NCBI GenBank assembly: GCA_031362565.1
Contig: JANLSU010000039.1
Location: forward strand, 64,001-128,000
Source: a bacterium
GTDB taxonomy: Bacteria; Krumholzibacteriota; Krumholzibacteriia; G020349025
DNA: 64,000 bases
Direction: 5' to 3'
Shown: positions 10,393 through 24,131 of the stretch, piece by piece
Numbering within the stretch: the first letter of the stretch is position 1
Layout: each line of letters opens with the position of its first letter
Program-made: the position numbers and the translations under genes
The notes under the pieces: model-generated
Databases searched by the model: none
Seen by the model: the letters and a program-made list of their open reading frames with translations, nothing else
What the model was told of the DNA's origin: nothing

Positions 10393-10403
10393 CGGCGGCT
10401 GCT

Positions 10404-12629
10404 TTGTCCACCGCGACCGCGCCGCCCGAGACACGCAGACTCCCCGGTCTCGGGATCGTGTTCGCGCTCGCGGCGCTTGTGCGGGTCGTGGCGTTGGCGC
10501 TGCAACCCGGACTGACCTACGACGGCACGTACTACTTGCGGCAGGCCGAACGCCTGGCGCACGGCCATTTCAATGTCATCGGCTTCCCGCCCGGATTCCC
10601 CTGCCTCGTGGCGCTCGTGACGCCGCTCGTGGGCGATCCGGTGCTGGCGGCGCGTCTCGTCTCACTCGTAGCGGGCCTCGCGACGCTCGGACTCGCGCTC
10701 AGTCTCGCGCGCGGCATGCTGACGCCACGCGCCGCGTTCGTCGTCGGCGTGTTCTTGGCGCTCGATCCCGACTACGTCCGCACCAGTGTCGAAGTGCTGA
10801 GCGAACCGCTCTACGGTGCTCTGCTCTGCGGCGCGTTGGTCGCCTTTCGCGCCCGGCGTGATGCAATGGTCGGGGCGCTGCTGGGTCTGGCGTTTCTCGT
10901 CCGTCCGGAAGCGGCGATCGTGCTCGCCGCGCTCCTCTATTTGCGCGCCCGGGAGACCAAACGCGTCCCGTGGCAGGCCTGTCTCGGATGGATTCCGGTC
11001 GTCGCGTATGCGGGACTCGCATCGCACGCCGTGGGACATCCGGTGCTGACGCCGAAACAGGATCAGTGGGACTTGGGCGCCGCCACCTGGCAACGTGCCG
11101 GCACGCTGCTATGGACGCTGCACGGCATCTTCCCGATCGTGCTCGTACCCGGCGCCGTGTGGTGGGCCGTGCGGCACGATCGCAGTTTGCTCGTACCGCT
11201 CCTCCCCACCGTGCTGCTGCCGTTTTTCGCGATTCATATTCAGGAGCGTTTTCACGTCCCGGCGCTGCCGATGCTGGCAATTCTGGCGGCGGCTTGGGTC
11301 GAGTCGCTCGGAGCGCGTCCCCGCCGAGCGTGCCTCGTCTTGGCGGCGGTTGCTTGCGCGGCCGGGACCGCGCCGCGCTGGCACCACCTCGTGCGCCCCG
11401 AACCGCTGACGCCACGCGGGCGCGAAATCGGCACCGCCCTGCGCTCCAGCGTGCGCTTCGACGATCAGATCGCGGCGCGATTCCCCATCGTCCCGTACTA
11501 CGCCGGCGCCGGTTTCGTCCGCGCGCCGCGCACCGCATCGTATGAGGCGATGTTGGATTCGGTGCGCGCCGCCGGCGCGACTCACTTGCTGGTGCTCGAA
11601 AACGAGACCGCTGCCATTCTGCCACAACTGCGGCCGCTGTTCGACAATGCTCAGGTGGCCAGTTCGGAATCGCGTCTCGAAGCGGTCGCGTGGGTGGATG
11701 CACCGGTCGGCGCACGGGCCCTCTTGTACCGCTTCCGGCCGGTGCCGGTGCCGGCGGAGAGCGTCCGAGTCCTCGCGTCCGATGTCGTATCGCTGGCTTG
11801 GAACGATCCGTGGCTCTGTACGAGCGACCGCGGTGGCCGCCTCCGCATCGTGGAGCCGGGCGAATTCGGGTCGACGCCGCTGCCGCCCGGCCGCGAACCC
11901 AGTGCTGGGGCCGGCGACGCCGCCATCGTCACGGTGCGCAACGACGGCCTGACGCGTTGGATCTGCAGTACCGACTTGCGCACCGGACACAGCACCGAGT
12001 TTGCCGCGACGCGCGGCGACGCACCCGCCTGGCCGGCGGCAACCGGCGACGCGATCCTCTATGTGCGTACCGCGCCACCCGGCGGACTGCGAGCCCTCGA
12101 TCCCGAGAGCGGCGAAATTCGCCCGGTGCGCTTCGCGGCCATCGAAGCCAGCGTCGCACGGCCGGTTTTCATCACGGCGCGCGGCCGCGACCTCAGTGTG
12201 ACGTTCGAGCGCGGCGGTAAGTCGAGCGTCGTCGCGACCGGCGAGTGGCCCGGTTGGACTGCGGGACACGACACGCTCGACGTGCCCGGTCGCTGGGCGA
12301 CGGCGTTGCAACTCCACGATCCACGCACCGCGTGGGTTCCCGACACCGACGCATTGTTTGCAAGTGTGACGCTCGCCGACTCGACTCCCGACGTCGCGGC
12401 GCTCTGCGTCGTGCAGGGCGCGACGCTCCGCCGGCTCACGTACGGCGTCGTCGAACCGCGTGCCGCCATCGCGCAGCGTCGAGCCGGTGGGCAACTGACG
12501 CTCGTCTTCGTGGCCGGGCGCAACGACTTGTGCCGCGCCCCCCTGCGCGTCGAGGACTTGCGCATTCCCACCGTGCGCGTCTTCCCAGCCCCCTCGGCCC
12601 GGCACGAATCCGGCTCTTTTCGCCCCTAA
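10404..12629 (+). CDS. GT-C fold (ArnT/PMT, GT39-like) membrane glycosyltransferase fused to a C-terminal soluble, propeller-like domain
   Basis: YDGTYY, PPGFP, SEPLY and LVRPEAA motifs in a multi-TM N-terminal half; start uncertain (TTG 10404 chosen; ORF open from 10332). Confidence 0.65.
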   Translation: MSTATAPPETRRLPGLGIVFALAALVRVVALALQPGLTYDGTYYLRQAERLAHGHFNVIGFPPGFPCLVALVTPLVGDPVLAARLVSLVAGLATLGLALSLARGMLTPRAAFVVGVFLALDPDYVRTSVEVLSEPLYGALLCGALVAFRARRDAMVGALLGLAFLVRPEAAIVLAALLYLRARETKRVPWQACLGWIPVVAYAGLASHAVGHPVLTPKQDQWDLGAATWQRAGTLLWTLHGIFPIVLVPGAVWWAVRHDRSLLVPLLPTVLLPFFAIHIQERFHVPALPMLAILAAAWVESLGARPRRACLVLAAVACAAGTAPRWHHLVRPEPLTPRGREIGTALRSSVRFDDQIAARFPIVPYYAGAGFVRAPRTASYEAMLDSVRAAGATHLLVLENETAAILPQLRPLFDNAQVASSESRLEAVAWVDAPVGARALLYRFRPVPVPAESVRVLASDVVSLAWNDPWLCTSDRGGRLRIVEPGEFGSTPLPPGREPSAGAGDAAIVTVRNDGLTRWICSTDLRTGHSTEFAATRGDAPAWPAATGDAILYVRTAPPGGLRALDPESGEIRPVRFAAIEASVARPVFITARGRDLSVTFERGGKSSVVATGEWPGWTAGHDTLDVPGRWATALQLHDPRTAWVPDTDALFASVTLADSTPDVAALCVVQGATLRRLTYGVVEPRAAIAQRRAGGQLTLVFVAGRNDLCRAPLRVEDLRIPTVRVFPAPSARHESGSFRP

Positions 12630-12686: not shown

Positions 12687-14243
12687 ATGACGTTTCCGAC
12701 CACCGAACGGCGTTTGCGCCGCGACCTCGCTGCCATTCGTGGCGATGGGGTCGCGTTCAGCCTCATGGTGGGGTTGGGCGAGACCTATATTCCCGCCTTC
12801 GCACTTGCCGCCGGACTCGGTTCGGTCACGGCTGGATTGGTGACGAGCGTGCCGCTGCTCGGCGGCGCCTTGTTGCAGCTCGTGTCGCCATTCGCAGTGC
12901 GGAAAATCGGCTCACGGCGCACTTGGGCGGTCGCTTGCGTGACCCTGCAGGCGGCGTGCTACGCACCGCTCGCGATCGCGGCGTGGTGCGGACGTGTTCC
13001 GGCCGTCGCCCTGTTCGCGATCACGTGTCTCTACTGGGGCGCGAGCATGGGCGCCGGGCCGGCGTGGAGCGGCTGGGTCGGAACGATCGTCCCGGCTCGA
13101 GTGCGCACGACGTACTGGGCGGAGCGCAGCCGTCTCGGCCACGTGGCGCTGCTCGCCGGCTTGCTGGTGGGCGGCGCGGTGCTGCACTTTTGCGCGCCGC
13201 CGCATCGCACGGATCTCCTGGCCTTCGCTGCACTGTTCGCCGCGGCCGGGCTCTGCCGCGCCGTTTCGGCGCGTTGCTTGGCAAGCATCCCGGGCGAAGT
13301 CGCCCCGCCACCGGCACGGGTCTTGGGAACGCGCGCGGTGATCGCGCGTCTCGGCAGCGGCGAAACCGGTCGCTTGTTGCGTTTCGCGCTGGCGCTGCAA
13401 GCCGCGGTGCAAGTCGCGGGGCCCTTCTTCACGCCCTACATGCTGCGGCAACTGCATCTGCCCTACACGGCGTATGTCATTCTGCTCGCCGCGTCCTACG
13501 GCGCCAAGATCATCAGCATGCCGCTCGTGGGCCGCGCCGCACGCCGTCACGGTGCGCTGCGTTTGCTGCGTCTCGGTGCTCTGGGCATCGCGCCCTTGCC
13601 GGCCCTTTGGCTCGTGTCGTCATCGCTGCCCTGGCTCATCGCGGTGAACGTGCTCTCGGGCGTCGTCTGGGCGACCTACGAACTGTCGCTCTTTTTGTTG
13701 GTGTTCGAGACCATCGAGGACACCGAGCGCACGAGTGTGCTCGCGGCCTACAACGTCGTGAATGCATTCGTGACCGTCGGCGGTGCGGCACTCGGTGGGA
13801 TTCTCTTGCAGCATGGCGGCATCTTCGCGCCGGTGTTCGCGCTGTCGTCGATCCTGCGCGTTCTGACCCTGCCACTCGCAGCGCGGCTCCGCGCGACAGG
13901 TTCCGGCCGCACGCTCCCGAGCTGGACGTACGGGGTCACCGGGCGCCAGGTTTTGGCGGCTTGTCGGGCACCGCGGGCACAACAGGCGCTACGGGCGCCG
14001 GGCGTACGCGCTTTGGGTTGCCCCGCACTTCCAGATTCGGGCCGAGATGGCACTGCACGCACAGAGCCCGTTTGGGTTCGCGGAGCAACAACCGTTCGTA
14101 GTCGCTGGAATGCGGCGAGTGACACGAGGTGCACTCCAAATCCATCCCCGTCCGTGGATCCTTCGCCGGGCCCTGATACGGATGCGGGTGCACCTTCGAC
14201 ACATCGTGGCATTGCATGCACAACACCGACTGCGGTGCCTTGA
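12687..14243 (+). CDS. MFS transporter with a C-terminal tail overlapping the convergent cytochrome gene
   Basis: About 12 hydrophobic segments, DGVAFSLMVGLGETYIPAFAL, GPFFTPYMLRQL; ATG 12687 (TTG 12675 alternative). Confidence 0.8.
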   Translation: MTFPTTERRLRRDLAAIRGDGVAFSLMVGLGETYIPAFALAAGLGSVTAGLVTSVPLLGGALLQLVSPFAVRKIGSRRTWAVACVTLQAACYAPLAIAAWCGRVPAVALFAITCLYWGASMGAGPAWSGWVGTIVPARVRTTYWAERSRLGHVALLAGLLVGGAVLHFCAPPHRTDLLAFAALFAAAGLCRAVSARCLASIPGEVAPPPARVLGTRAVIARLGSGETGRLLRFALALQAAVQVAGPFFTPYMLRQLHLPYTAYVILLAASYGAKIISMPLVGRAARRHGALRLLRLGALGIAPLPALWLVSSSLPWLIAVNVLSGVVWATYELSLFLLVFETIEDTERTSVLAAYNVVNAFVTVGGAALGGILLQHGGIFAPVFALSSILRVLTLPLAARLRATGSGRTLPSWTYGVTGRQVLAACRAPRAQQALRAPGVRALGCPALPDSGRDGTARTEPVWVRGATTVRSRWNAASDTRCTPNPSPSVDPSPGPDTDAGAPSTHRGIACTTPTAVP

Positions 14244-17226
14244 GAATCTTGCGCGTCGTACTGCCGTGTGGAGAGTGGCAATTCGTACAAGTCTCTACAT
14301 CCGGGTGTTTGTTCTTCTTGGCAAACAGCCCGCGGTCATGACACGCGACGCAGGTCGATTGCAGATCGGCCTTCCGCAACAATGCGTCCGTGGTTCCGCC
14401 ATGCGGGGAGTGACACTCGAGACAGCTCTTGCCACGCAGTAGCGCCACATGCGGCGCGGTCTTGGTCAGATCCGCCTTGTGGTCGTCGTGGCAGGTCAGA
14501 CACAACTCGGGTGCTGGCGCGACGAGTTGCTTCTGCGGCGTGTGGCATGCATCGCATTGGTTTTCGGCGAATGGCGCGTGCTGTTTGGGTGGCAAGAGTG
14601 CGCGCTGACCACTGCCGTGGGGATCGTGGCACTCGGTGCAGGCTTGAATGCCGTCCGCGAATCCTTTGTGTTTGGTGCGGAACACGGCGGCGTTCGCATC
14701 ATGACACTTCACGCACAGTTCGCGATCGGTCGCCGTCCGGCGCAGCCCGCGCGCCTTGCCCTCATGCGGGGCGTGACATTCCAGGCACTTGCCGCTACGC
14801 GCCGGCGAATGCCCATGCGCGCCCTGGGCACGTTTGACGATGTCGGCGTGACACGTGGCACACAGCTCCGCAACCGGGCGCACCAGCAACCCAGGCTCGA
14901 CGCCTTCGTGCGGCCGGTGGCACGTGATGCACTGGCCCTCGCGCACGGGGCGGTGCACGAGCGTGGTATCGCCGGCAGTCGTGACATCGGTGTGACATTC
15001 ACGACACATCTGTCCTGGCTTGGCGACGAGCAGTGGCTTGATGCTGGACGCATGCGGCGCGTGGCAGCTCGTGCACTCACCCGCTTCGAACGGCGCGTGT
15101 TGGGCGTGTCCGGGCGGGGTCTTCGGCGGCGTGTGGCATGTCCCGCAAGTTTCGCCCACCGCGGCCGCCAGTTCAACCTTCGCCCCGGGGGCGGGCGGTT
15201 TGTGGCAGGACGTGCAATCACCTTCCGCAAACGGCGCGTGGACTTGGGCCCGCAGCAGTCCCTTCTTGTCCGACCGATGCGGGTCGTGACACGTGGTGCA
15301 CGAGGCCTCGGTGACTGGGAACTCCTTGTGCGCAGCGCGCAGTTTCGAGGTGCCCAGATCGTGGCAGGCGGTGCAGGCCTTCACGAGCGCGATCTTGCCG
15401 TCCGCGCCGCGCGTCCGGTGGGCGTCGTGGCAGGTGTTGCATTCTCCGGCCCCGACCGGGGCGTGGACAACACCCTTCGACATCAGTGCGTCATGCAAGG
15501 CCGTGTGGCACTGGAAACAAAGCTCCGACCCTGTATTCACGAGCAGCGCCTTGGTTCCGGCCGTTGCATGCGGGCTATGGCAATCGATGCACTCGCCCTT
15601 CCGAACCGGTGTGTGCATCTGGGCCGCGGGCACGGCCGCCAGTTTCTCTCCATGACATTTCGCACACAGACCGGCGGCGTTCTGGACCAGCAGGCCAGGC
15701 GTCGTCGACTGGTGCGGAGCGTGGCAGGTGCCGCATTCGCCCGCCGCGAAAGGCGGGTGCTGGGTGGCCATGCGGAGTTCGTCGGCTTGGGCACGGTGGC
15801 AACTCAGACACAGTTGCGGGGTGGGCTTTTGCAGCATCGCCTTCTGATCATTGCCATGCGGGTCATGGCACGTCGTGCATTCACCGCTCGCATAGGGCAG
15901 ATGGATCACATCGTTCGGTCCGGCAGGCTTGGCCGCGCCATGGCATTCACGGCAATCCGATTCGACATCCTTCTTCAACAGCGCATGCTCGGTGCTCGCA
16001 TGCGCCACGTGACACGTCGAGCAGGCCTCCTGCGCCGGCGGATGGGGTGACTTCGCGGCCTGCACCTTGGCGGCCAACGGGCCGTGACACGCCGTGCACA
16101 GTGCGGGGTCCACCTTTTGCGTCATGTGCGGCGCCCCGCCGCCGTGCGGCGTGTGGCACACCGTACAATCGAAGTCGCGGAAGGGTGCGTGCACCGAGGC
16201 CTTCTTGGCCTCGTCGCGAATGCCCTGATGGCAAGGAGTACACAGCGTTTCAGCGTCGCCGCGCAGCAGCGACGGGCGTTGCGACTGGTGCGGCGCATGA
16301 CAAAACAGGCAGTCGCCCTCGGCGGCCGGTGGATGGCCATCCTTTGCCGCGGCAACCGCCTGCACCGGCGCGTGGCAGGTGACACACAGTTGTTTCTTGT
16401 CCGCCTGCAGTTTCTCGGGATGCGCCGGCAGGTCGGTGTGGCATGCCTCGCACTGGGCGCGCCCATAGGGCGCGTGAATGTACGCGCCCTTCTTCGCGGT
16501 CGACTCGGCGTGCGGGTCGTGGCACGAAGTACAAGATGCGCCCGCCACTTCTGGTTTACGGTGCAGTTCCGGCAACCGCGCGACGTCACCATGGCAGCGG
16601 GCGCACATTTTCGATTCGGGTTCCAGTAAGAGGTGCTTTTCGGGAGCCGAGTGGCCACCGTGGCATTCCTGGCAGCGCCCTTGCGCGAAAGGCGCGTGCT
16701 GCTTCGGGGATGCCATCGCTGCGGCGATCCGGGTGTGGCACGCGGCACACGCTGGTGCCCAGGAGGCAGTGGATGTCGTCGCCGCAGCAGCCGGTTTCTT
16801 CGCCGCGATCGCGCCTTTCGGCGCCGGCGGGCGCGTCGCGGTCGAATCGCTGCGCGCGGCTTCGCGCAAGAGGCCTTTGTTGTTTGCCGCATGCGGGTCG
16901 TGGCACGACGTGCACGAGACATCCGCTTGGTGCAAGTGATCGGAGCCGGCTCCGCCGGGCGCTTTTACGTTCTTGTGGCACTCGAGGCAGAGTTCGGGTT
17001 GTTTGGCGGTGAGAACGAGCTTTTGCGTGAAGCCATGCCGCTTATGGCAGGCCTCGCAGTTCTCTTTCTTGACGGGGTCGTGGACGAAGGCCTTCGCGTA
17101 GGTCTTGCGCGCCGCGGCATGACACTCGTAGCACGAGCGACTCGCCTGCCCGAGAACGCGCCCGGGCCATGCACACAGCAGCAGGGCGAGCAAAATCTGG
17201 CCGCCGACCCACCGACCCGTATTCAT
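13936..17226 (-). CDS. Giant periplasmic multiheme cytochrome c, 42 CXXCH (doubled-CXXCH repeats)
   Basis: Start MNTGRWVGGQILLALLLCAW (signal peptide); 42 CXXCH counted manually in about 1096 aa; repeating HxP-x4-5-CxxCHxPH...LL...LCxxCH units. Confidence 0.95.
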   Translation of the reverse strand: MNTGRWVGGQILLALLLCAWPGRVLGQASRSCYECHAAARKTYAKAFVHDPVKKENCEACHKRHGFTQKLVLTAKQPELCLECHKNVKAPGGAGSDHLHQADVSCTSCHDPHAANNKGLLREAARSDSTATRPPAPKGAIAAKKPAAAATTSTASWAPACAACHTRIAAAMASPKQHAPFAQGRCQECHGGHSAPEKHLLLEPESKMCARCHGDVARLPELHRKPEVAGASCTSCHDPHAESTAKKGAYIHAPYGRAQCEACHTDLPAHPEKLQADKKQLCVTCHAPVQAVAAAKDGHPPAAEGDCLFCHAPHQSQRPSLLRGDAETLCTPCHQGIRDEAKKASVHAPFRDFDCTVCHTPHGGGAPHMTQKVDPALCTACHGPLAAKVQAAKSPHPPAQEACSTCHVAHASTEHALLKKDVESDCRECHGAAKPAGPNDVIHLPYASGECTTCHDPHGNDQKAMLQKPTPQLCLSCHRAQADELRMATQHPPFAAGECGTCHAPHQSTTPGLLVQNAAGLCAKCHGEKLAAVPAAQMHTPVRKGECIDCHSPHATAGTKALLVNTGSELCFQCHTALHDALMSKGVVHAPVGAGECNTCHDAHRTRGADGKIALVKACTACHDLGTSKLRAAHKEFPVTEASCTTCHDPHRSDKKGLLRAQVHAPFAEGDCTSCHKPPAPGAKVELAAAVGETCGTCHTPPKTPPGHAQHAPFEAGECTSCHAPHASSIKPLLVAKPGQMCRECHTDVTTAGDTTLVHRPVREGQCITCHRPHEGVEPGLLVRPVAELCATCHADIVKRAQGAHGHSPARSGKCLECHAPHEGKARGLRRTATDRELCVKCHDANAAVFRTKHKGFADGIQACTECHDPHGSGQRALLPPKQHAPFAENQCDACHTPQKQLVAPAPELCLTCHDDHKADLTKTAPHVALLRGKSCLECHSPHGGTTDALLRKADLQSTCVACHDRGLFAKKNKHPDVETCTNCHSPHGSTTRKILKAPQSVLCMQCHDVSKVHPHPYQGPAKDPRTGMDLECTSCHSPHSSDYERLLLREPKRALCVQCHLGPNLEVRGNPKRVRPAPVAPVVPAVPDKPPKPGAR

Positions 17227-17233
17227 GGCAGCG

Positions 17234-17911
17234 TCACTCGGGCTTCCGGGTTGGCGTGCTGTTGTCGACAGCGGCAGGCTTGACCGGCGTTGCCGGCGCC
17301 GCATGCTTCACGGGGCGCATCGTGGCAGGCGGAGCCAGCCGTGTTGAACGGGGGGCCGGCTTGGCGCTCGCGGCCTGCAACGGCTTCGCAACGCCCGGGC
17401 CCGTCCATCCCTGGATTTCCTTGAGCTGGAAAGTGAAGAAGGACTTCGGAGAGAAGTGCGGCGGGAAATTCAAGAAGGCATAGACACTGTCCGCCATCGC
17501 GCTGTCGCCGCGCACGAAGACATGAATCGCAGGGTTTTTCAGCGAATCGGATGCGGACAGGACCTTGCCGTCGATGGTGCGGAAGTCGGGATACAGATCC
17601 CGGACGACGGCCTCGTTCTGCGTGTCCCCGAGCATGAAGGGCTCGCCGATGTGGACCCGATGTTCTTCCTTCCAGTCCGGATACAGGCGGCTGCCGGCTT
17701 CGATCACCAGCAGCAGCCGGGGGTCCTGGACCGGCGGGGAACTCCGAACCGTTACGGGCTTGAGGGCGGCCGGGGCCTCCGCCGCCGGAACCATTGCGAC
17801 GGCGAGTACAAGCACCATCCCGAAGACCACCGCACCAAGGCCAGCCATCCACAACAAGTCGCCGAGTGCGAGCCTGGGTGGCGATTGATTCGTGGACTCA
17901 AGGTCTTTCAT
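17234..17911 (-). CDS. Membrane-anchored protein with a ResB/Ccs1-like (DUF2155-like) periplasmic domain
   Basis: ATG 17911 after GAAAGGAAG; one N-terminal TM; LYPDF-x4-GKVLSASDSLKNPAIHV...AFLNFPPHF pattern resembles the ResB periplasmic segment (from memory). Confidence 0.5.
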   Translation of the reverse strand: MKDLESTNQSPPRLALGDLLWMAGLGAVVFGMVLVLAVAMVPAAEAPAALKPVTVRSSPPVQDPRLLLVIEAGSRLYPDWKEEHRVHIGEPFMLGDTQNEAVVRDLYPDFRTIDGKVLSASDSLKNPAIHVFVRGDSAMADSVYAFLNFPPHFSPKSFFTFQLKEIQGWTGPGVAKPLQAASAKPAPRSTRLAPPATMRPVKHAAPATPVKPAAVDNSTPTRKPE

Positions 17912-17916
17912 CCGAC

Positions 17917-18573
17917 TCACTTCCTTTCGCGAGAAGCGACGCGAGATTGCTGCGCCTGTTCCATGGCGGCCGCGAACGGGCGCACCGCTTCGTGTGCGAC
18001 CGCCGCGGAAAGCTGTTCCATCGCATTGACGCGGCCGAGGCCGAACAGCCATTCGCCGTCCGCGCCATCTCTGCCGTGAACCGTCGACCACACGACACGT
18101 GAGCCGGGCGTGCGCACCAGCCGCAGTGCCAGCGAAACTTGCGGTGTCCGTCCCTCGCGGTCGTCCCGGCCGCCGTACGCGAGCAACGCACCCTGGAGGA
18201 GCCCGTCTGCATGCAGTTCCGCGCCGATTCGATCGGCCAAGTCCGGCGGCAAACGGTCGAGCAGCAACCAGGGCTCCTTGGCGAGCGCGTCTTCGACGGC
18301 GCCGGGATCCACGACCTCGAGGCCTGGAATACGCGCCAATTCGTTCGCGAGTGCCAAGCCGAGCCGTTGCGGCGCATCGCGATCGGGCGAGTAGTTGGCG
18401 AGTGGTAACAGCGCGACGCGGAAAGGCCGGCTGGAGCTATCGGCCGACGCGAAGGGCCGCTCTTCCGGCGCGATGAAGGTGCGTGGTTGCGGCACGCAGC
18501 CCAGGGCGCAAGCCAGCAAGGCGAAAGCACTGGCCCGAGCTGCACGCCGTACTTCACGACGCAGGTTTCGCAT
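17917..18573 (-). CDS. Outer-membrane lipoprotein, PelC/GNA1162(DUF799)/CsgG-like fold
   Basis: Lipobox ALLACALG-C; RVALLPLANYS...IGAELHADGLLQG...VSLALRLV...RVVWS pattern. Confidence 0.7.
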   Translation of the reverse strand: MRNLRREVRRAARASAFALLACALGCVPQPRTFIAPEERPFASADSSSRPFRVALLPLANYSPDRDAPQRLGLALANELARIPGLEVVDPGAVEDALAKEPWLLLDRLPPDLADRIGAELHADGLLQGALLAYGGRDDREGRTPQVSLALRLVRTPGSRVVWSTVHGRDGADGEWLFGLGRVNAMEQLSAAVAHEAVRPFAAAMEQAQQSRVASRERK

Positions 18574-19147
18574 GCCGAGTCACCTCCGGCAACGTGCGCA
18601 AGAGTTGGCGACAAGTCGCCGCAGCCAGACCGTCGATCGTGCGTTCGGGGCGGCCCAAGAAGGGCACTCCGGGGCCGCTGTGCCGCGTGGCACTGGCGCT
18701 CCACACGAGCCGCCCGGTCGCCACGTCCACGAAGCGCACTTCCAGCGCCACCAGCGGATAGGAATCACGCCCATTCTGCACCATCGTGAATTCGCGCACC
18801 GTGCCGATGAATACGCCTTGCACGTCGGTTTCCTTGCCTAACTTCGTGAGTTCCCCGCTGGACCATGGGTTCGCATAGGGCGTGCCGCCGCGCACCCGCG
18901 TCATGGCGCTTGCGAACTGGCCGGGTTCCAACACTTGATCGAACTTCCGTTGCAGCAGTTCTGAAAAGAACACGTCAGTCACCTTCTCGCCCGCCAGCCG
19001 GTCTTGCGCCAGTGACGAGAACGGAATGACGGCGACTCGCTCGTAGAAGGGCATGTCCGCATCGGGATGCACGAAGCGTGTCATGCCTCCGCAGCCGCAC
19101 AGGAGGGCCAGGGTCGTGACCCACGCCGTCTTGCACCCCATTCTCAT
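18554..19147 (-). CDS. Second PelC/GNA1162/CsgG-like lipoprotein (paralog)
   Basis: ATG 19147 after AAAGGA; lipobox LALLCG-C; RVAVIPF...LGKETDVQGVFIGTV...VRFVDVATGRLVWSAS. Confidence 0.75.
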   Translation of the reverse strand: MRMGCKTAWVTTLALLCGCGGMTRFVHPDADMPFYERVAVIPFSSLAQDRLAGEKVTDVFFSELLQRKFDQVLEPGQFASAMTRVRGGTPYANPWSSGELTKLGKETDVQGVFIGTVREFTMVQNGRDSYPLVALEVRFVDVATGRLVWSASATRHSGPGVPFLGRPERTIDGLAAATCRQLLRTLPEVTRHAKPAS

Positions 19148-19184
19148 CGTCGTCCTTTGCAACCATGACGCGCCCGAGCGCTGG

Positions 19185-20762
19185 TCAGAAGGTCTTCTCG
19201 ACGGTCACACTGTACGAGCGGCGGTCCACGAGACCGGTACTTTGCGTTTCACGGGCATTGCCGCGCAGGCGCGTGCCGTTCGGAAGTTCGAATCCCAGAT
19301 CGAACCCGAACACCCGCTCCGACCCCACGTCGGCCTTGCCACTCACCTGGCGCCACAGCCCGTTCGCTGCCGCCACCATCCGCGGCGTCAGCCGCCAGTT
19401 CGCATTGAGTCCCGTGTGGTGTTCCGCACGGCGAACACGACCTTGGCCGGACAACCGGCGCCAGGTGCCACTGACACTCGTCGAGGCCGACGGATCGAAC
19501 GAACCAGTGACCTGCCACTCACGATCCTGTTGCCCGAGTCCCTCGACGTCCGGCAACTCATCCTGACGCCACGAGACGTTTATGCGCGTGGCGGCGGTGG
19601 GGCGGGTGCGCACTTCGGCCAACTCATGCCATTGCGTTCCCACCGAGCTCGCAGCGCGAATGCGGGCCGCGCGCACCTCCGCCCGGGCCTCGAGGCCGGG
19701 CCGCAGGCGGCCGTCGAGCGAGCCGTACGCCGTGCTCCGCGGCGCGTCGCCGCCGGCACCCGCGAACTGCACCGCGCTCATCCATCCAGTCTGCAGCACG
19801 ACGGCGCGCCAAACGTCGTGACGATAGAGCATTTCGAGCTGCATGTAGTCACTCACATGATTGCTGACCCCGTCGCCTTGGCGGCGGTACTCGCGCACGG
19901 CGCGCAGGTCGAGCCCGGTAAACGGACGCACGCTGAGGTCGGCGGTCAGATCGCGCTCGCCGATCCTCTGGTTACTGGGCGCCGCGTTGTCGTCAGCCCG
20001 GCCCCAGCGTTCGATCACATTGGCGCTGGCCGAAACGCGCCGCTCCGGTGTCCACGCCGCTTGCCCCTGGAGGGTTTGCGTCTGGGTCGAGCGCCGCCGT
20101 GCGAAAGATTGGTATTTCGCCACCAGGCCGTCGTACTGCCCCGTCGTGGTCAATTTCGTCCACGAACGCTCGGCGTGGACACCGCCGCGAAATTCGTCGG
20201 TGCGTTGCGGGGCACCGATGGCGCCGTTGGCTCGAGCGTCAATGCGCCGCACCCCGGCGTTCACACCATACCCGTTGCGACCCCATCCGGCGCGCAGTTG
20301 GCGATCCTCGGACGACGATCGCAGCCCGGCGATTTCACGGTCGAGTCGATTGTATCCGGCGTCGACTTGCGGGCCCCGGCGGGGCGTCCAATGGAGTCCG
20401 AGCTGGGATTGGCGTTCACGCGAGCTGCGGTTGCCGGCGACGTTGCGCTGCCACGGCGCCAGTTGCGCATCGGCGCGCCACCGCGTCGCGCGCAGGTCGG
20501 CAAAGACGCGGCTCCGCAGCAAATCGGTTTCTCGGACGGGCAGGAGCGACTGGTATTGGAGCGAGGCGCGAAGGTGCAGGTCCAAGCCGCGCGGCAGGGG
20601 CTGGCGGCCGCCGATTTCGTACAGATGCCGCATCGCGTCACCTCCGTCGATTCCCTGGACCCGGTTCACGGTTCCCAGGTACCGGCCTTCGATCGCGAGC
20701 GCGGGGTGCACGGCGAGCGCGGCGCCGATCCCGATCGCAAGCTGCAGGTGCCGGGTCCGCAT
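19185..20762 (-). CDS. Outer-membrane beta-barrel protein (about 525 aa)
   Basis: Signal peptide MRTRHLQLAIGIGAALAVHPALA; many alternating amphipathic strands; C-terminal SYSVTVEKTF (BAM-type terminal Phe). Confidence 0.8.
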   Translation of the reverse strand: MRTRHLQLAIGIGAALAVHPALAIEGRYLGTVNRVQGIDGGDAMRHLYEIGGRQPLPRGLDLHLRASLQYQSLLPVRETDLLRSRVFADLRATRWRADAQLAPWQRNVAGNRSSRERQSQLGLHWTPRRGPQVDAGYNRLDREIAGLRSSSEDRQLRAGWGRNGYGVNAGVRRIDARANGAIGAPQRTDEFRGGVHAERSWTKLTTTGQYDGLVAKYQSFARRRSTQTQTLQGQAAWTPERRVSASANVIERWGRADDNAAPSNQRIGERDLTADLSVRPFTGLDLRAVREYRRQGDGVSNHVSDYMQLEMLYRHDVWRAVVLQTGWMSAVQFAGAGGDAPRSTAYGSLDGRLRPGLEARAEVRAARIRAASSVGTQWHELAEVRTRPTAATRINVSWRQDELPDVEGLGQQDREWQVTGSFDPSASTSVSGTWRRLSGQGRVRRAEHHTGLNANWRLTPRMVAAANGLWRQVSGKADVGSERVFGFDLGFELPNGTRLRGNARETQSTGLVDRRSYSVTVEKTF

Positions 20763-20775
20763 GGCGACCGTGCCT

Positions 20776-21867
20776 TCATTGCCCCGGATCGGGGTTGTGC
20801 ACGTTGTGTGCCGCGGGTGAGGTGTAGTCGTTGCCGTGGCAGCCATAGCAGCTCTTGAGGTCGCTCGTGGCGTGCCCATCGCGCCCGGAGAGAGTGTTCA
20901 TGACGATCCCTTGCACGGACTGCGAGCCGGGGATTCCGTCCGCCGGGATGTGACATCCAAAACAGAATTGGCGGGCTTGCGCCGGGTCGTTGACGGTGTC
21001 GTCGAGGCCGCTCCAGCCCGGACGTTGGTCCGAGATCAGGTAGGCGTTGGGGCGCACTCCGTCATTCCCCACCGAGCCATGGACACCGTGGCAGTCGTAG
21101 CACGCCAGTTTGTCGCCGACTTGCACCTGCGGCGGCCAGGACAGCGCGATGGCGGGATTCTTCCGGATGCGGTGGCCGGCGTTCGGTCCGGAGACCGCCG
21201 AGTCATAGAAGTCACCGATGGTGCGATTCGACACATCCATTCCCGGCGGGCCTGCATCCGAATGGCAACGCACACACTGTGCGTAGGCCGCGGGCGGGCC
21301 CGTCTCGGCATGGCCTGAGATCCCGCCGTACGTTCCCACCAACAGGTCGCGCGCCTCCGTGCCATGCGGGTCGTGACAGTTCATGCACGAGCCCTCGCCG
21401 CTCGGGTCGTGCCGCGGCATATCGGGGTCGCTGGCATGCGGCGATACGTAGTGGCCCGTGGAGGTCGTGGTCGGATCGCGGTACGTGCGCTCGCCGGGCC
21501 AGCGGCCGCGCAGGTCGAGCCCCGCCCGCCGCACCCCGCCGGAGTTTATTTCGAAATACCCGGCATCCGGAGTTCCCGTGGGGAGTCGATCCAATTCACG
21601 CAGTGGATACGTCGACGGCCGCACCGAATGACACGTCAGGCACAGCCCGTTGTCGTTGGTCGTGAAGAGCAGGTTCGGGTTCGTGGCGCCCGCATCGCCA
21701 TGTTGCGGATGGCACTGGATACACTGGCCGCGAGTCGAGGGCTGGGTGACGACACGCGAGACGCCGTCTTGGGCATCGCCATGGGGATCGAAAACCGGGG
21801 TTTGCGCAATTGCGGGTTGGGCAGAGGCGGTAAGAATCAGGAGGATCAGGAAGAGGGCCGGTCGCAT
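20776..21867 (-). CDS. Exported heptaheme cytochrome c
   Basis: Signal peptide; 7 CXXCH (CIQCH, CLTCH, CMNCH, CVRCH, CYDCH, CFGCH, CYGCH). Confidence 0.92.
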   Translation of the reverse strand: MRPALFLILLILTASAQPAIAQTPVFDPHGDAQDGVSRVVTQPSTRGQCIQCHPQHGDAGATNPNLLFTTNDNGLCLTCHSVRPSTYPLRELDRLPTGTPDAGYFEINSGGVRRAGLDLRGRWPGERTYRDPTTTSTGHYVSPHASDPDMPRHDPSGEGSCMNCHDPHGTEARDLLVGTYGGISGHAETGPPAAYAQCVRCHSDAGPPGMDVSNRTIGDFYDSAVSGPNAGHRIRKNPAIALSWPPQVQVGDKLACYDCHGVHGSVGNDGVRPNAYLISDQRPGWSGLDDTVNDPAQARQFCFGCHIPADGIPGSQSVQGIVMNTLSGRDGHATSDLKSCYGCHGNDYTSPAAHNVHNPDPGQ

Positions 21868-21917
21868 CGTGCACTCCCACCCCGGCCCGACGCGACGCCG
21901 ATGCGACTCTGTGTTCG

Positions 21918-21993
21918 GTCCGGGCTCCGACAGTGGCCGGATTGGCGGAGCCCGGACGATGCAGCGATCCCGTGGAACCAGGGCCGTTCCACG
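21918..21993 (-). terminator. Two GC-rich hairpins just downstream of the hexaheme gene (partial terminator or mRNA stabiliser)
   Basis: Perfect inverted repeats GTCCGGGCTCCG/CGGAGCCCGGAC (21918-21957) and CGTGGAAC/GTTCCACG (21971-21993); no clear U-tract. Confidence 0.55.
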
Positions 21994-22002
21994 CCGAACG
22001 CG

Positions 22003-23112
22003 TTAGAAGGCAGTGCTGCTGCCACCCATGCTATGGCACTGGCGGCACAGGTTGCGAGTATCGACGCCCGCATCACCCTGCTCGGTAACCGCGCCCGAAC
22101 CCAACATGAAGATCAGACCGAACGCGTTCTGATTCCCATGACCCTTGTGGCACGACATGCAGGACGCCGTCAAGTCCGTGTTTCCAATCGCGTAACTGCC
22201 GGCACGCACGCCGGTCGGCGACATGACTTGCACTTGGTTGCGATTTGGGACGACGGGGCTCGTACCCACGAAGCGCGCCAGGCTCGAGTGTCCGCCACCG
22301 AGCGCGCCGATGTTCACCGTCGATGCCGGGTGACGCTTGAACTCGTCCAACAACCCGAGCGGGTTCGGGGCGGGCGCGAGCACACCGCCAATTTCCGCGC
22401 CACCAAGCGAGCCATGGAAGTCTGTATGACAGCTCTTGCAGAAGGTCGCGTACTGCGATTCCGTCGTCACTGGTTCGTTGAACGTGATGTGGTTGTAACC
22501 GTAGTGGTTGGCGTTCACGCCGCTCGACACGTCTTCGAACACCCAACGAGTCAGGTCGTTCGAGGGTTCGACGTCGCCGCGCGAGTAGCTGAGGCTGATT
22601 CCCGATGGGCCGTACAAATTGCGGTAGCCGCCGTTGCTCGGCAGACCGCTCTGCGTCCGGCCATGCGGTGCGTGACAATCGACGCAGTTCAAGCCGGTCA
22701 GGTTGCGCCACGTTCCGCCAGGGGCCACCAGGCCCGAACCCAGAGTGTGGCCGTTTTCCGGATGGTAGCTGCCGGTGCTGCTCACGTCATTCAGTGCGCC
22801 CGCTTGACGCACGTACCCGGCGCTATGGGTTTCGAGAACGTCAGGCGCGAAGTTCTGGCCGTCATGGCAGGACAAGCACAGGTCGTTGATGTCATTGCGC
22901 AGCAGGAATTCGTACGGTCCGGCGGCGCCGAGCGCCGTGAAGTTTCCGCCACCATTGGCGTTGTAACCGTGGGACTGGCTGGCGTGCATCACATGGCAAT
23001 CTGCACAAATGAGATTGACGCCGGTATGCCAGTCGCCCGCAAAGGCAACTCCGGCCACCAGAGTCATCACGCTGCTCAAGACCACGACGTTTCTTAGGAT
23101 CTTCTTCGTCAT
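22003..23112 (-). CDS. OmcS-like hexaheme cytochrome c (putative nanowire subunit)
   Basis: Signal peptide ending AFA; 6 CXXCH; motif order WH-x6-CADCHVMH, GPYEFLL, GH..APGGTW..LNCVDCHAPHG, GGYRNL, FCKSCHTDFH..RHP, CMSCHKGH, RNLCRQCH parallels the recalled OmcS sequence. Confidence 0.85.
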   Translation of the reverse strand: MTKKILRNVVVLSSVMTLVAGVAFAGDWHTGVNLICADCHVMHASQSHGYNANGGGNFTALGAAGPYEFLLRNDINDLCLSCHDGQNFAPDVLETHSAGYVRQAGALNDVSSTGSYHPENGHTLGSGLVAPGGTWRNLTGLNCVDCHAPHGRTQSGLPSNGGYRNLYGPSGISLSYSRGDVEPSNDLTRWVFEDVSSGVNANHYGYNHITFNEPVTTESQYATFCKSCHTDFHGSLGGAEIGGVLAPAPNPLGLLDEFKRHPASTVNIGALGGGHSSLARFVGTSPVVPNRNQVQVMSPTGVRAGSYAIGNTDLTASCMSCHKGHGNQNAFGLIFMLGSGAVTEQGDAGVDTRNLCRQCHSMGGSSTAF

Positions 23113-23126
23113 GATGTCTCACCTCT

Positions 23127-24131
23127 TCAGTTCGACCCTGGCTCCTCTCGCCGTGGAGTCGGAGCCGTCGTGTTGGACTCGGAACCGGGGTCCGGGCTCT
23201 TCGTCATCCCGACTTCAAGAATCTGGATCCGGGCGCCCGCCCGCTCCAGGACCACGAGTCGATCGGCGGCGAGAAACGCGCACGAAACCGGGTGGATGAA
23301 CTCTCCTGGTTCGCGACCTCGTCCACCGATACGGCCAAGGTACTTTCCCTCCGTGCTGAACACGCTGATGGAGCTTCGAATCGTGTCGGTGATCCACAGC
23401 GTGTTCTCAGGTCCCCAGGCGGCGTGCGTTGGCAACGAGAAGGTGCCGGCGCCCTCGCCATGTGATCCAAACATCGCAATCTGTGTGCCATCGGATTTGA
23501 ACACCCCAATCGGAGTCTCCGCATCCGCATCGACGGTTGAAATCAGCGATTCGTCAGCATTCACCGCGACACAAACCGGGGCCCGAAACGGTGCTTCGCC
23601 GACGTGATCGATGCGCAGGTCGATCGTGCCGTTCGGCCGAACGGCGAAGATCGACGAACTCGGCCCGCCGATCGCCAGCCAAATACGGCCACTCGGCGCC
23701 ACCGCGACGTCGTTGATTTGACCTGCCGGCAGCGAATCGAGCCATGCCAGGGTCGCGCCGGTCGCCGTGAGGACCTCAAGGCCCCGGCCATTGCCGGCGA
23801 CGTACAGCCGGGCCCGTGAATCGAACGCTACGGCCCGCGGTTCGCACTCCCGCCCCTCGGAATCGCTTGTGGCACAAGGGATTCCGCCGCGGGACCGGCC
23901 CGTGCCATCGAACAGCAGCAGGCGGTGATTGCCGGTATCGGCGACCACGAGGAGGCCGCGAGCAGGGTCAGCAGCCAGTCCGAGTGGGCCATGGAAGGCG
24001 TCGAGCGGCGACGGGCCATACCAGATCCGCGGCACCGAAAGGATGACGGGCGCCTGCGCCGCGGCGGCCGCGGCGACGCCGGCGAGGATCGAGGCGTACA
24101 CGAGGGTCCGGCAGAGGCGGCGGGCGCGCAT
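23127..24131 (-). CDS. Exported NHL-repeat beta-propeller protein
   Basis: ATG 24131 after GGAGG; signal peptide; NHL repeats (FHGPLGLA..VADTGNHR, FGSHGEGAGTFSLP, IGGRGREPGEFIHP). Confidence 0.88.
   Translation of the reverse strand: MRARRLCRTLVYASILAGVAAAAAAQAPVILSVPRIWYGPSPLDAFHGPLGLAADPARGLLVVADTGNHRLLLFDGTGRSRGGIPCATSDSEGRECEPRAVAFDSRARLYVAGNGRGLEVLTATGATLAWLDSLPAGQINDVAVAPSGRIWLAIGGPSSSIFAVRPNGTIDLRIDHVGEAPFRAPVCVAVNADESLISTVDADAETPIGVFKSDGTQIAMFGSHGEGAGTFSLPTHAAWGPENTLWITDTIRSSISVFSTEGKYLGRIGGRGREPGEFIHPVSCAFLAADRLVVLERAGARIQILEVGMTKSPDPGSESNTTAPTPRREEPGSN

Follow-up and report, generated by a model that had tools for sequence, protein, structure and literature searches.

The window analysed here, a stretch of 64,000 nucleotides, carries a gene for a hexaheme c-type cytochrome whose kinship with OmcS, judged from its sequence, is real but very remote. 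The gene is one of eight in a conserved module, which also encodes an NHL propeller, a heptaheme cytochrome, a 28-strand barrel, two PelC-like lipoproteins, a small protein and a 42-heme cytochrome (Table 1). We propose, with a probability of about 0.5, that the OmcS-like cytochrome is secreted and serves as a subunit in an extracellular electron-transfer system of the OmcS type.

Table 1. Genes of the conserved module, the OmcS-like gene first and the others in the order in which they are read on the minus strand (positions are those of the window).
Feature	Position	Strand	Details
OmcS-family hexaheme c-type cytochrome gene	22003..23112	-	369 aa, ATG start
NHL-repeat beta-propeller, signal peptide	23127..24131	-	mechanical ORF to 24371; likely start Met 24131 (MRARRL...)
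Heptaheme c-type cytochrome, 363 aa, signal peptide	20776..21867	-	seven CXXCH; Pfam Paired_CXXCH_1 E 2.8e-19
Predicted 28-strand outer-membrane beta-barrel, 525 aa from likely start	19185..20762	-	mechanical ORF to 20879; C-terminus ...VEKTF
PelC-like lipoprotein A, 202 aa	18554..19162	-	lipobox LLCGC; in 60/79 loci
PelC-like lipoprotein B, 218 aa	17917..18573	-	lipobox ALGC; in 56/79 loci
Small membrane-anchored or secreted protein	17234..17911	-	conserved core ~110 aa (HRLYPDF...NPA...WAF...PHF)
Giant multiheme c-type cytochrome, 1122 aa	13936..17304	-	42 CXXCH; Pfam Paired_CXXCH_1 E 1.5e-192, 21 stretches

The open reading frame proposed in a first-pass annotation stands at the position given there; it lies on the minus strand and encodes 369 aa from an ATG start. 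Its product has a Sec signal peptide with cleavage after AFA (A25), leaving a mature protein of 344 aa, as that annotation had estimated, and its count of six hemes agrees with the six CXXCH motifs of the translation, at residues 36, 79, 143, 225, 318 and 356. All the motif strings that it had quoted are present, namely VAFA/GDWH...CADCHVMH (the slash marks the cleavage site), ENGHTLGSGLVAPGGTW...LNCVDCHAPHG, GGYRNL, FCKSCHTDFH...KRHP, CMSCHKGHG and RNLCRQCH, but the list had left out the second CXXCH, CLSCH. The OmcS counterparts that it had given are borne out by alignments to PDB 6ef8_A, which contain FHSGGVAECEGCHTMH, GHNIV, APGGTYPANQLHCSSCHDPHG, GAYRIL, WCANCHTDIH, LRHP, CLSCHRAHA and RALCNKCH. 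The most conserved 10-residue blocks of the family lie at the heme-5 motif (residues 321-330, 0.87) and around H43 (residues 41-50, 0.79). Pfam matches of the cytochrome are generic multiheme domains, and a search of NCBIfam returned domain-level matches and no named equivalog.

A single-sequence phmmer search of the PDB did not find OmcS at E <= 10, and low-complexity motifs are common among multiheme cytochromes; both points would fit a resemblance produced by chance CXXCH spacing in an unrelated multiheme cytochrome. Profiles of the family tell another story. Against 177,635 distinct PDB sequences, a profile of 40 rows (A1) matched OmcS (6ef8/6nef) at E 9.8e-9 and a profile of 45 rows from about ten phyla (A2) matched it at E 1.4e-12 (50.7 bits). 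OmcS was the sole significant match in both searches, the next PDB entries standing at E 0.13 and, for A2, 0.15. As both profiles single out OmcS from so many sequences, the resemblance goes beyond chance. The profile alignment is colinear with residues 1-54, 125-336 and 397-404 of the 6ef8_A chain and reaches outside the CXXCH motifs, a point on which the first-pass annotation had made its OmcS-like reading depend. An OmcS orthologue is 25.8% identical to the protein where 287 positions align (about 21-26% overall), and intermediate families connect the OmcS-like family with the OmcS group at E 1e-24 to 1e-66.

The fold comparison may point the same way. The AlphaFold2 model of the monomer, built with no hemes, has a mean pLDDT of 55.9, and Foldseek found no match with it. 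VIA-align, run with this low-confidence model against 48,161 chains, placed 6ef8_A first, with a Z of 6.3 (a value below 8 may reflect merely a common arrangement) against 2.3 for the next chain, and aligned 222 residues, from 25-358 of the model to 3-402 of the 6ef8_A chain. Given the profile matches to OmcS alone at E of the order of 1e-9 to 1e-12, the intermediate families, and the six common histidines and shared accessory genes described below, the chance explanation is effectively refuted, and the OmcS-like reading of the first-pass annotation is supported.

The invariant histidines of the OmcS-like family are those of the six CXXCH motifs and H29, H43, H48, H122, H150, H233, H261 and H325. 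A bis-His hexaheme needs six distal ligands. A bridge alignment of 27 sequences has exactly six non-motif histidine columns that are common to all groups, H29, H43, H122, H150, H261 and H325, with 15/15 in the OmcS-like family at each column, 6-8/8 in the intermediates and 3-4/4 in the OmcS orthologues; all six are also invariant in 45/45 family rows. We infer that these six are the distal ligands of the bis-His hemes. The mapping of distal histidines, also named by the first-pass annotation as a point on which its reading would turn, thus yields six positions in common with true OmcS orthologues.

Of these, H43 deserves particular attention. It lies three residues after the first CXXCH, and its counterpart in the OmcS chain is residue 16, which we take to be the inter-subunit ligand of heme 5. 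The first-pass annotation had the histidine at +3 as kept (CHVMH), and it is found in 74/74 genome-derived and 111/111 metagenome-derived members that include the N-terminus. It is also retained in paralogues and intermediate families; the +3 histidine is therefore needed for a polymer model but is not diagnostic of one. According to Filman et al. 2019, heme 5 of OmcS takes one axial ligand from the neighbouring subunit. The bridge alignment shows H48 and H233 to be specific to the OmcS-like family or partly shared, and either of them could be an intramolecular source of a ligand, in which case a monomer would be allowed. Complex prediction with two copies of residues 26-369 and 4 of the 12 hemes gave 0.33, 0.00 and 0.00 in its runs, which speaks neither for nor against binding.

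The neighbouring genes are conserved with the cytochrome. The NHL propeller gene is the immediate upstream neighbour of the OmcS-like gene. In the 79 related loci, a homologue of the NHL propeller protein (Pfam NHL E 5e-12; 6-bladed propeller DUF5128 E 5.4e-6) is found in 68, mostly ~1 kb upstream and on the same strand, the heptaheme cytochrome in 64, and a match to the giant cytochrome in 62, with a long match at the equivalent relative place in most. A barrel-position ORF, mostly of 520-600 aa, is present in 39 loci, 22 of which are recognised by the family HMM. The small protein has a tblastn match in 31/79 (its alignment, A6, has 18 rows) and its profile matches nothing in Pfam or the PDB. 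Genes flanking the module, unlike those within it, occur in 0-1/79 related loci, and 24 of the 28 Paired_CXXCH matches in the organism's own genome fall inside the module. A promoter and terminator scan gave no sigma-70-like site; its one terminator-like site, on the plus strand, falls within the giant cytochrome gene, and shuffles gave more. The folding of a 143-nt stretch spanning the 135-nt gap after the OmcS-like gene was not significant as RNA (z -1.46).

The two lipoproteins are paralogous (hhalign probability 100, E 1.3e-43), and the lipobox cysteine is invariant in both family alignments. Their nearest solved relatives are PelC proteins of polysaccharide export: the family profile of lipoprotein A matches 5t11_A (E 3.2e-10), 9h80_C (E 8.3e-8) and 5t0z_A (E 2.3e-7), and that of lipoprotein B matches 9h80_C (E 6.5e-15) and 5t11_A (E 1.1e-12). 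One could therefore imagine that the barrel and lipoproteins export something else, for example a polysaccharide as in PelBC, and that the OmcS-like protein, whose location is predicted only and whose Pfam matches are generic, is a soluble periplasmic hexaheme carrier or a subunit of a redox enzyme. We consider this quite improbable. The conserved module contains cytochromes and envelope proteins and no polysaccharide synthesis genes, and the PelC-like lipoprotein families adjoin OmcS-type genes of another phylum in 14/20 stretches examined. In addition, work citing Shen et al. 2025 (Cell Chem Biol) reports that OscEFG are genetically linked to OmcS secretion.

A locus of another phylum, L122, offers a comparison. 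It encodes an OmcS orthologue that matches 6ef8_A at full length (E 3.5e-112), with an NHL propeller beside it, then a large protein that has no family match and ends in FF, then two lipoproteins, and it likewise ends in a large multiheme cytochrome. The NHL profile from the window matches the 318-aa propeller adjoining this orthologue (E 1.2e-26), the profile of lipoprotein A matches a 218-aa lipoprotein of L122 (E 2.4e-42) and that of lipoprotein B a 382-aa one (E 1e-51). The two loci thus have in common the propeller, the pair of lipoproteins and the order of the genes. At the barrel position the likeness is positional: hhalign of the window barrel family against the 738-aa protein of L122 found no similarity (probability 0.3). 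The presence here of accessory genes of a true OmcS locus gives the OmcS reading independent support. The order D-E-F-G-H published for the osc (omcS-companion) genes, as quoted in PMC13194489 (citing Shen et al. 2025), fits that of L122 and of the window. From the gene order and sizes quoted there, rather than from named sequences, the barrel and the two lipoproteins would be the counterpart of OscE-F-G. Our literature search found no paper that calls the osc lipoproteins PelC-like; Shen et al. 2025 or its supplements may do so, and may list these phyla.

The correspondence with the osc cluster is incomplete. No OscD-like or OscH-like gene was found among the module ORFs, and the rest of the organism's own genome gave weak, partial matches. 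A PpiD-like PPIase encoded at 8599-10392 was considered as the OscH counterpart and rejected (E 0.01, conserved in 1/79 loci).

The lack of these two genes would suit a porin-cytochrome conduit of the Mtr type, in which the OmcS-like protein, although still an OmcS homologue, does not polymerise into a wire but is bound to the barrel and acts there as a terminal reductase or oxidase. It would then take the place of MtrC, the heptaheme cytochrome would sit in the barrel as MtrA does in MtrB, with the 42-heme protein spanning the periplasm. The mtr genes are ordered mtrC-mtrA-mtrB, and the module has the same order of surface cytochrome, smaller cytochrome and barrel, with the heptaheme gene immediately before the barrel gene in most loci. 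The barrel profile matches nothing in Pfam or among PDB sequences, but the AlphaFold2 model of the barrel (35-row alignment, mean pLDDT 91.1, 28 strands) brought up large outer-membrane barrels alone in Foldseek, with MtrB (6r2q_B) at the top TM-score (TMq 0.53) and the others at 0.27-0.42. The invariant H48 and H233 could, moreover, close heme 5 within one chain. Other observations speak against such a conduit. It is specifically with the true OmcS locus that the module shares its NHL propeller and its PelC-like lipoproteins, and to our knowledge neither belongs to Mtr systems. MtrC carries a lipobox, unlike the OmcS-like protein, which consequently has no obvious surface anchor. Finally, the heptaheme profile has no clear solved relative in the PDB, its best match being OmcS (E 0.0045 over 54 residues), with MtrA (6r2q_A) at E 0.14. 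We hold a conduit of this kind to be possible but somewhat doubtful.

In the OmcS-type reading that we prefer, the pre-protein would be exported by Sec and cleaved after AFA, and six bis-His c-type hemes would be loaded in the periplasm. The protein would then pass to the cell surface through the 28-strand barrel and the two PelC-like lipoproteins encoded just downstream, the presumed counterpart of OscE-F-G in Geobacter. PelC forms rings, and ring formation by the lipoproteins of the window is assumed from PelC. Outside the cell, a head-to-tail stack of subunits might form, in which H43, on the N-terminal arm, binds heme 5 of the following subunit as its sixth ligand, as residue 16 would in OmcS. 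This would give a continuous heme chain, to which the heptaheme and 42-heme cytochromes would pass electrons from the periplasm. The surface location, the export role of the barrel and lipoproteins, the polymerisation and the direction of electron flow are all inferred. Given the shorter chain, the protein may be a compact nanowire variant, as the first-pass annotation had suggested.

The OmcS-like family has 232 relatives in a collection with one genome per species. They come from about ten phyla, all as metagenome-assembled genomes, and their annotation goes no further than "cytochrome c3 family" or "hypothetical". Earlier reports already describe OmcS homologues, with their companion genes, as widespread. 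One freshwater-sediment DNA run contains the stretch in full and may be where it came from. In a soil metatranscriptome run there are contigs of 151-287 nt with 80-97% likeness to parts of the OmcS-like gene, and one of them, 262 nt long, shows 8 differences over 22891-23152. As these are contigs, were queried with the gene and may stem from DNA in the library, we did not count them as evidence of expression or habitat.

A bolder reading, which we regard as rather unlikely, is that many uncultivated lineages (Eisenbacteria, Krumholzibacteriota, Zixibacteria, Ignavibacteria, Gemmatimonadota, Planctomycetota and others) depend chiefly on this module for extracellular electron transfer, as a compact OmcS-type nanowire system in its own right. 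A 28-strand barrel, topped by hetero-oligomeric rings of PelC-like proteins, would be the base or the channel for filament assembly, and the filament would be connected directly to the cell by a heptaheme plug and a periplasmic 42-heme cable. Such a system would combine two known designs and do without the OscD and OscH that Geobacter needs.

Research on cytochrome nanowires has been almost wholly on Geobacter. Should the present family form polymers, the range of OmcS-type wires, together with an assembly module that can be recognised, would reach into phyla of sediment and soil without cultured representatives, and metagenomes would be read differently with regard to iron cycling, interspecies electron transfer and electrode communities. 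The common core of a propeller, a gene at the barrel position and a pair of PelC-like lipoproteins gives a hint as to which components of the Geobacter machinery are indispensable and which are particular to a lineage. By analogy with PelBC, this core also hints at how a heme-loaded protein might cross the outer membrane in the folded state. For the question of how a protein scaffold tunes heme chains, the shorter subunit would offer a useful comparison.

Among known systems, the OmcE nanowire clusters (mBio 2026, PMC13712944) resemble the module in that both kinds of gene noted in that paper are present here; OmcE itself is a tetraheme protein, unrelated in sequence to the OmcS-like cytochrome. 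The MtrCAB complex (PDB 6R2Q) has a large barrel, the best TM-score match of the barrel model, and a similar order of surface cytochrome, smaller cytochrome and barrel. It differs from the module, which has 28 predicted strands in its barrel, includes PelC-like lipoproteins, and encodes cytochromes with no significant sequence similarity to MtrA or MtrC.

PelC of Pel polysaccharide export (PDB 9H80, 5T10, 5T11, 5T0Z) is homologous to both lipoproteins (best E 6.5e-15 and 3.2e-10), and the lipoprotein genes adjoin that of an outer-membrane barrel. The module differs in its two paralogous copies, its lack of pel biosynthesis genes and its cytochrome context. Like the osc cluster, it has an NHL propeller gene beside that of the cytochrome, a large gene at the barrel position and, after it, two genes for PelC-like lipoproteins, arranged as in the true OmcS locus, and it too closes with a very large multiheme cytochrome. 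Unlike the osc cluster, it has neither an OscD-like ~470-aa YNCE-type propeller nor a SurA/PPIC (OscH-like) chaperone; a heptaheme cytochrome and a small protein are present instead, and the homology of its barrel is undetectable by sequence.

OmcS of Geobacter sulfurreducens (PDB 6EF8, 6NEF), a hexaheme nanowire subunit, shares with the OmcS-like cytochrome six CXXCH motifs in colinear order, a Sec signal peptide, a first ligand histidine at the extreme mature N-terminus, and the blocks APGGT(Y/W), CH.PHG, CHTD.H, RHP and CH(K/R).H. The two differ in mature length (344 aa here, 407 aa in OmcS), and the CXXCH spacings, 43/64/82/93/38 here, are 26/93/102/85/75 in the OmcS orthologue of L122. 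The OmcS-like family is further set apart from OmcS by the extra invariant H48, and its clade by a short C-terminal tail with a terminal aromatic residue.

The first-pass annotation had proposed that the window encodes an OmcS-like hexaheme cytochrome, possibly a compact nanowire variant. The minus-strand ORF in question yields P0001, a protein of 369 aa with a typical Sec signal peptide ending in AFA, a mature chain beginning GDWH, and six CXXCH motifs at residues 36, 79, 143, 225, 318, and 356. The ORF and all the motif strings quoted for it were found in the translation, and the OmcS strings quoted there for comparison are seen in the computed alignments to 6ef8_A, the OmcS chain in the PDB.

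Kinship with OmcS emerges at the level of profiles. With P0001 alone as query, phmmer did not recover OmcS at E <= 10 from the full set of PDB chains, and Pfam and NCBIfam returned generic multiheme domains only. Among 8000 scored candidates, 794 proteins belong to the P0001 family at E <= 0.001, named "hypothetical" or "cytochrome c3 family" by their sources. A profile of 40 of these relatives (A1) had OmcS (6ef8/6nef) as its sole significant sequence in the PDB (E 9.8e-9), with a colinear match from the first mature residue through the last heme motif. The broader profile A2, built from 45 proteins of named MAG loci in many phyla, gave a stronger match (E 1.4e-12, 50.7 bits; runner-up E 0.15). 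Structure prediction lends weaker support than the profiles. AlphaFold2, run without hemes, gave a model of P0001 of low confidence (mean pLDDT 55.9), for which Foldseek found no match. Exhaustive structural alignment of the same model (mean pLDDT 55.9) against 48,161 representative chains placed 6ef8_A first with a Z of 6.3, the second-ranked chain having a Z of 2.3; 222 residues were aligned (model 25-358, chain 3-402) at 5.2 A rmsd and 21% identity. A match of Z 6.3 from such a model would be weak alone and is consistent with the profile result.

Bridging families connect the two proteins. Of 401 genomes from another phylum, 68 contained matches to the A2 profile, whose scores grade continuously, and 20 of the matching regions were fetched. 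One of these loci, L122, encodes a bona fide OmcS orthologue (9616-10941; full-length phmmer match to the 407 residues of 6ef8_A, E 3.5e-112). In an alignment of 27 sequences (15 of the P0001 family, eight intermediates, and four of OmcS type), exactly six histidine columns outside CXXCH are common to all three groups, in P0001 numbering H29, H43, H122, H150, H261, and H325. As six bis-His hemes require six distal ligands, we infer that these residues are probably the distal heme ligands. H48 is invariant within the P0001 family only, and H233 is shared just in part. H43 lies three residues past the first CXXCH, and the +3 histidine noted at first pass holds up: it aligns with OmcS residue 16, which reportedly serves as a ligand of heme 5 in the following subunit (Wang et al. 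2019). The +3 histidine is present in all 74 genome-locus proteins that translate without a stop and in all 111 metagenome proteins with an N-terminus (120 listed, the other nine being N-terminal truncations). Conservation within the family peaks in two 10-residue blocks, one at the heme-5 motif (321-330) and the other around H43 and H48 (41-50). In OmcS, 11 of the 12 axial histidines come from the subunit itself and one, on heme 5, from its neighbour, according to Filman et al. 2019.

Some relatives depart from this pattern. In P0099, a full-length metagenome relative, heme motif 1 reads SDCH, with Ser for its first Cys, and the +3 His is kept; its heme 1 may be attached through a single thioether. 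An OmcS-like subfamily with five hemes (358-404 aa; L111-L117 and L123-L128) is missing the third heme motif, has C..CHTMH.SQ as its first motif, and ends in CHT.KD; its genes stand beside triads of PelC-like genes in 9 of 13 loci. P0001 itself ends in GGSSTAF, and an aromatic last residue (F/W/Y) behind a GG..T.. tail occurs in 66/120 metagenome relatives but in only 8/74 genome-locus relatives. OmcS has no such tail; the feature calls to mind the aromatic signal at the C-terminus of outer-membrane proteins.

The OmcS-like gene lies within a run of eight genes on the same strand (see table).

Features of the OmcS-like module and its surroundings. The last column gives the number of loci, among the 79 kept, with a tblastn hit to the gene at E <= 1e-5; contig ends cut many of these loci short.
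Feature	Positions	Strand	Order of transcription	Loci
NHL beta-propeller	23127-24131	-	1	68/79
OmcS-like hexaheme cytochrome (P0001)	22003-23112	-	2	
C-terminal codons of the P0001 ORF	22003-22029	-		
Gap behind the OmcS-like gene	21868-22002			
Heptaheme cytochrome	20776-21867	-	3	64/79
525-aa protein, C-terminal Phe; predicted barrel (AlphaFold2, Foldseek)	19185-20762	-	4	11/79
Lipoprotein A, profile match to PelC	18554-19162	-	5	60/79
Lipoprotein B, profile match to PelC	17917-18573	-	6	56/79
Small conserved protein, no known family	17234-17911	-	7	31/79
1122-aa cytochrome, 42 CXXCH motifs	13936-17304	-	8 (last)	62/79
Six flanking genes				0 or 1 of 79 each
PpiD-like PPIase	8599-10392			

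The barrel family has no match in Pfam or among PDB sequences. The 525-aa protein was modelled with high confidence (pLDDT 91.1) as 28 beta-strands, which would make it unusually large for an outer-membrane barrel formed by one chain; Foldseek matched the model to large outer-membrane barrels only, MtrB having the top TM-score (0.53). Lipoproteins A and B are paralogues whose profiles match solved PelC proteins (E 3.2e-10 and 6.5e-15, respectively). The small protein, with invariant R..Y.D, NPA, WAF, and PH(F/Y), matches nothing in Pfam or the PDB, and its gene always lies between those of lipoprotein B and the giant cytochrome. The latter carries a CXXCH about every 24 residues, and most related loci have a homologue of similar length in the corresponding position. 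The 135-nt gap behind the OmcS-like gene contains a G+C-rich hairpin of 12 bp that lacks a U tract. It could act to stabilise RNA, or as an attenuator, following the gene of a highly expressed subunit; a 143-nt stretch across the gap does not fold significantly more stably than shuffles (z -1.46).

The reading we prefer, with a probability of about 0.5 as a whole, is that P0001 is the exported, polymerising subunit of an OmcS-like wire. After Sec export and heme loading, the subunit would pass outward through an apparatus of the barrel and a PelC-like ring and polymerise through a bond between H43 and heme 5, with both adjacent cytochromes feeding the wire. In the main rival reading, P0001 remains a homologue of OmcS but would serve on the surface as the cytochrome of an Mtr-like conduit whose barrel holds the heptaheme protein. 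MtrB is the best structural match of the barrel, the gene order of the module mirrors mtrCAB, and two extra invariant histidines could complete the ligation of heme 5 inside a single chain; however, P0001 has no lipid anchor, and the PelC-like and NHL genes are common specifically to OmcS loci. We regard such a conduit as possible, though less likely than the wire.

Conservation of the eight-gene module ends at its borders, as the counts for the flanking genes indicate. A search for related loci found 232 relatives in a collection with one genome per species. The records, MAGs throughout, are labelled Eisenbacteria, Krumholzibacteriota, Zixibacteria, Ignavibacteria, Gemmatimonadota, Acidobacteriota, Latescibacterota, Armatimonadota, Planctomycetota, and "Deltaproteobacteria". 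Most loci share one gene order, and a single rearranged version occurs in the group of Zixibacteria and Ignavibacteria. The barrel is fast-evolving: its identity across phyla is 11-17%, and an ORF of mostly 520-600 aa occupies its position in 39 loci, 22 of them recognised by the family HMM. Within the phylum, the OmcS-like gene occurs in 20/208 genomes at E <= 1e-20 (11/125 high-quality genomes) and in one of the six other genomes of the organism's own taxonomic family. The window's own genome (5.4 Mb) has a single copy, and 24 of its 28 Paired_CXXCH matches lie inside the module, the other four being on contigs C34 and C66. This patchiness and concentration suit an accessory, possibly transferred, module.

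OmcS homologues outside Geobacter have been reported from BLAST at E < 1e-5 (Portela et al. 2024), a FeGenie "OmcS" match in a Krumholzibacteria MAG appears in a preprint (bioRxiv 2020.09.22.307553), and the companion machinery is widespread, going by the title of Shen et al. 2025. This is therefore not a new kind of system. The P0001 group is a distinct, shorter OmcS subfamily, missed by pairwise searches and unnamed in public annotation, with its own conserved accessory gene set. In the literature searched, no paper was found that terms these lipoproteins PelC-like; such a description, and these phyla too, may already appear in Shen et al. 2025 or its supplements.

The L122 locus allows a direct comparison. 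It encodes, in order, an NHL propeller (318 aa; E 1.2e-26 to the window propeller profile), the OmcS orthologue, a YNCE-like propeller lipoprotein (467 aa), a 738-aa protein with no family match and a C-terminal FF, homologues of lipoproteins A (218 aa; E 2.4e-42) and B (382 aa; E 1e-51), a SurA/PPIC-type PPIase (558 aa), and a large multiheme cytochrome; L130, another locus, has the same gene set. This order fits what is published on the osc operon, the omcS-companion genes of Geobacter: PMC13194489, which cites Shen et al. 2025, assigns OscD (473 residues) to filament morphology, OscE/F/G to secretion, and OscH to folding. Hence the window barrel and lipoproteins A and B are read as counterparts of OscE, OscF, and OscG, by order and size and not from named Geobacter sequences; the barrel and the 738-aa protein have no sequence similarity. 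Near OmcS-type genes of the other phylum (L111-L128), PelC-like lipoproteins occur in 14 of the 20 fetched stretches, 9 of the 14 having a triad of about 195, then about 490-570, then about 200 aa. Tandem OmcS-like paralogues, three or four in number, are found in two other genomes (G001 C130:47010-51534, locus L078; G002 C16:91707-96426, locus L076) and recall omcS/omcT/oscC of Geobacter, whereas the window genome has one copy. Unlike the osc cluster and L122, the window module contains neither an OscD-like propeller nor a PPIase, for which the rest of the genome offers weak partial matches only; the PpiD-like PPIase of the window was rejected as an OscH counterpart, being unrelated in detail and not conserved. 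Compared with L122, the window module additionally encodes the heptaheme cytochrome and the small protein.
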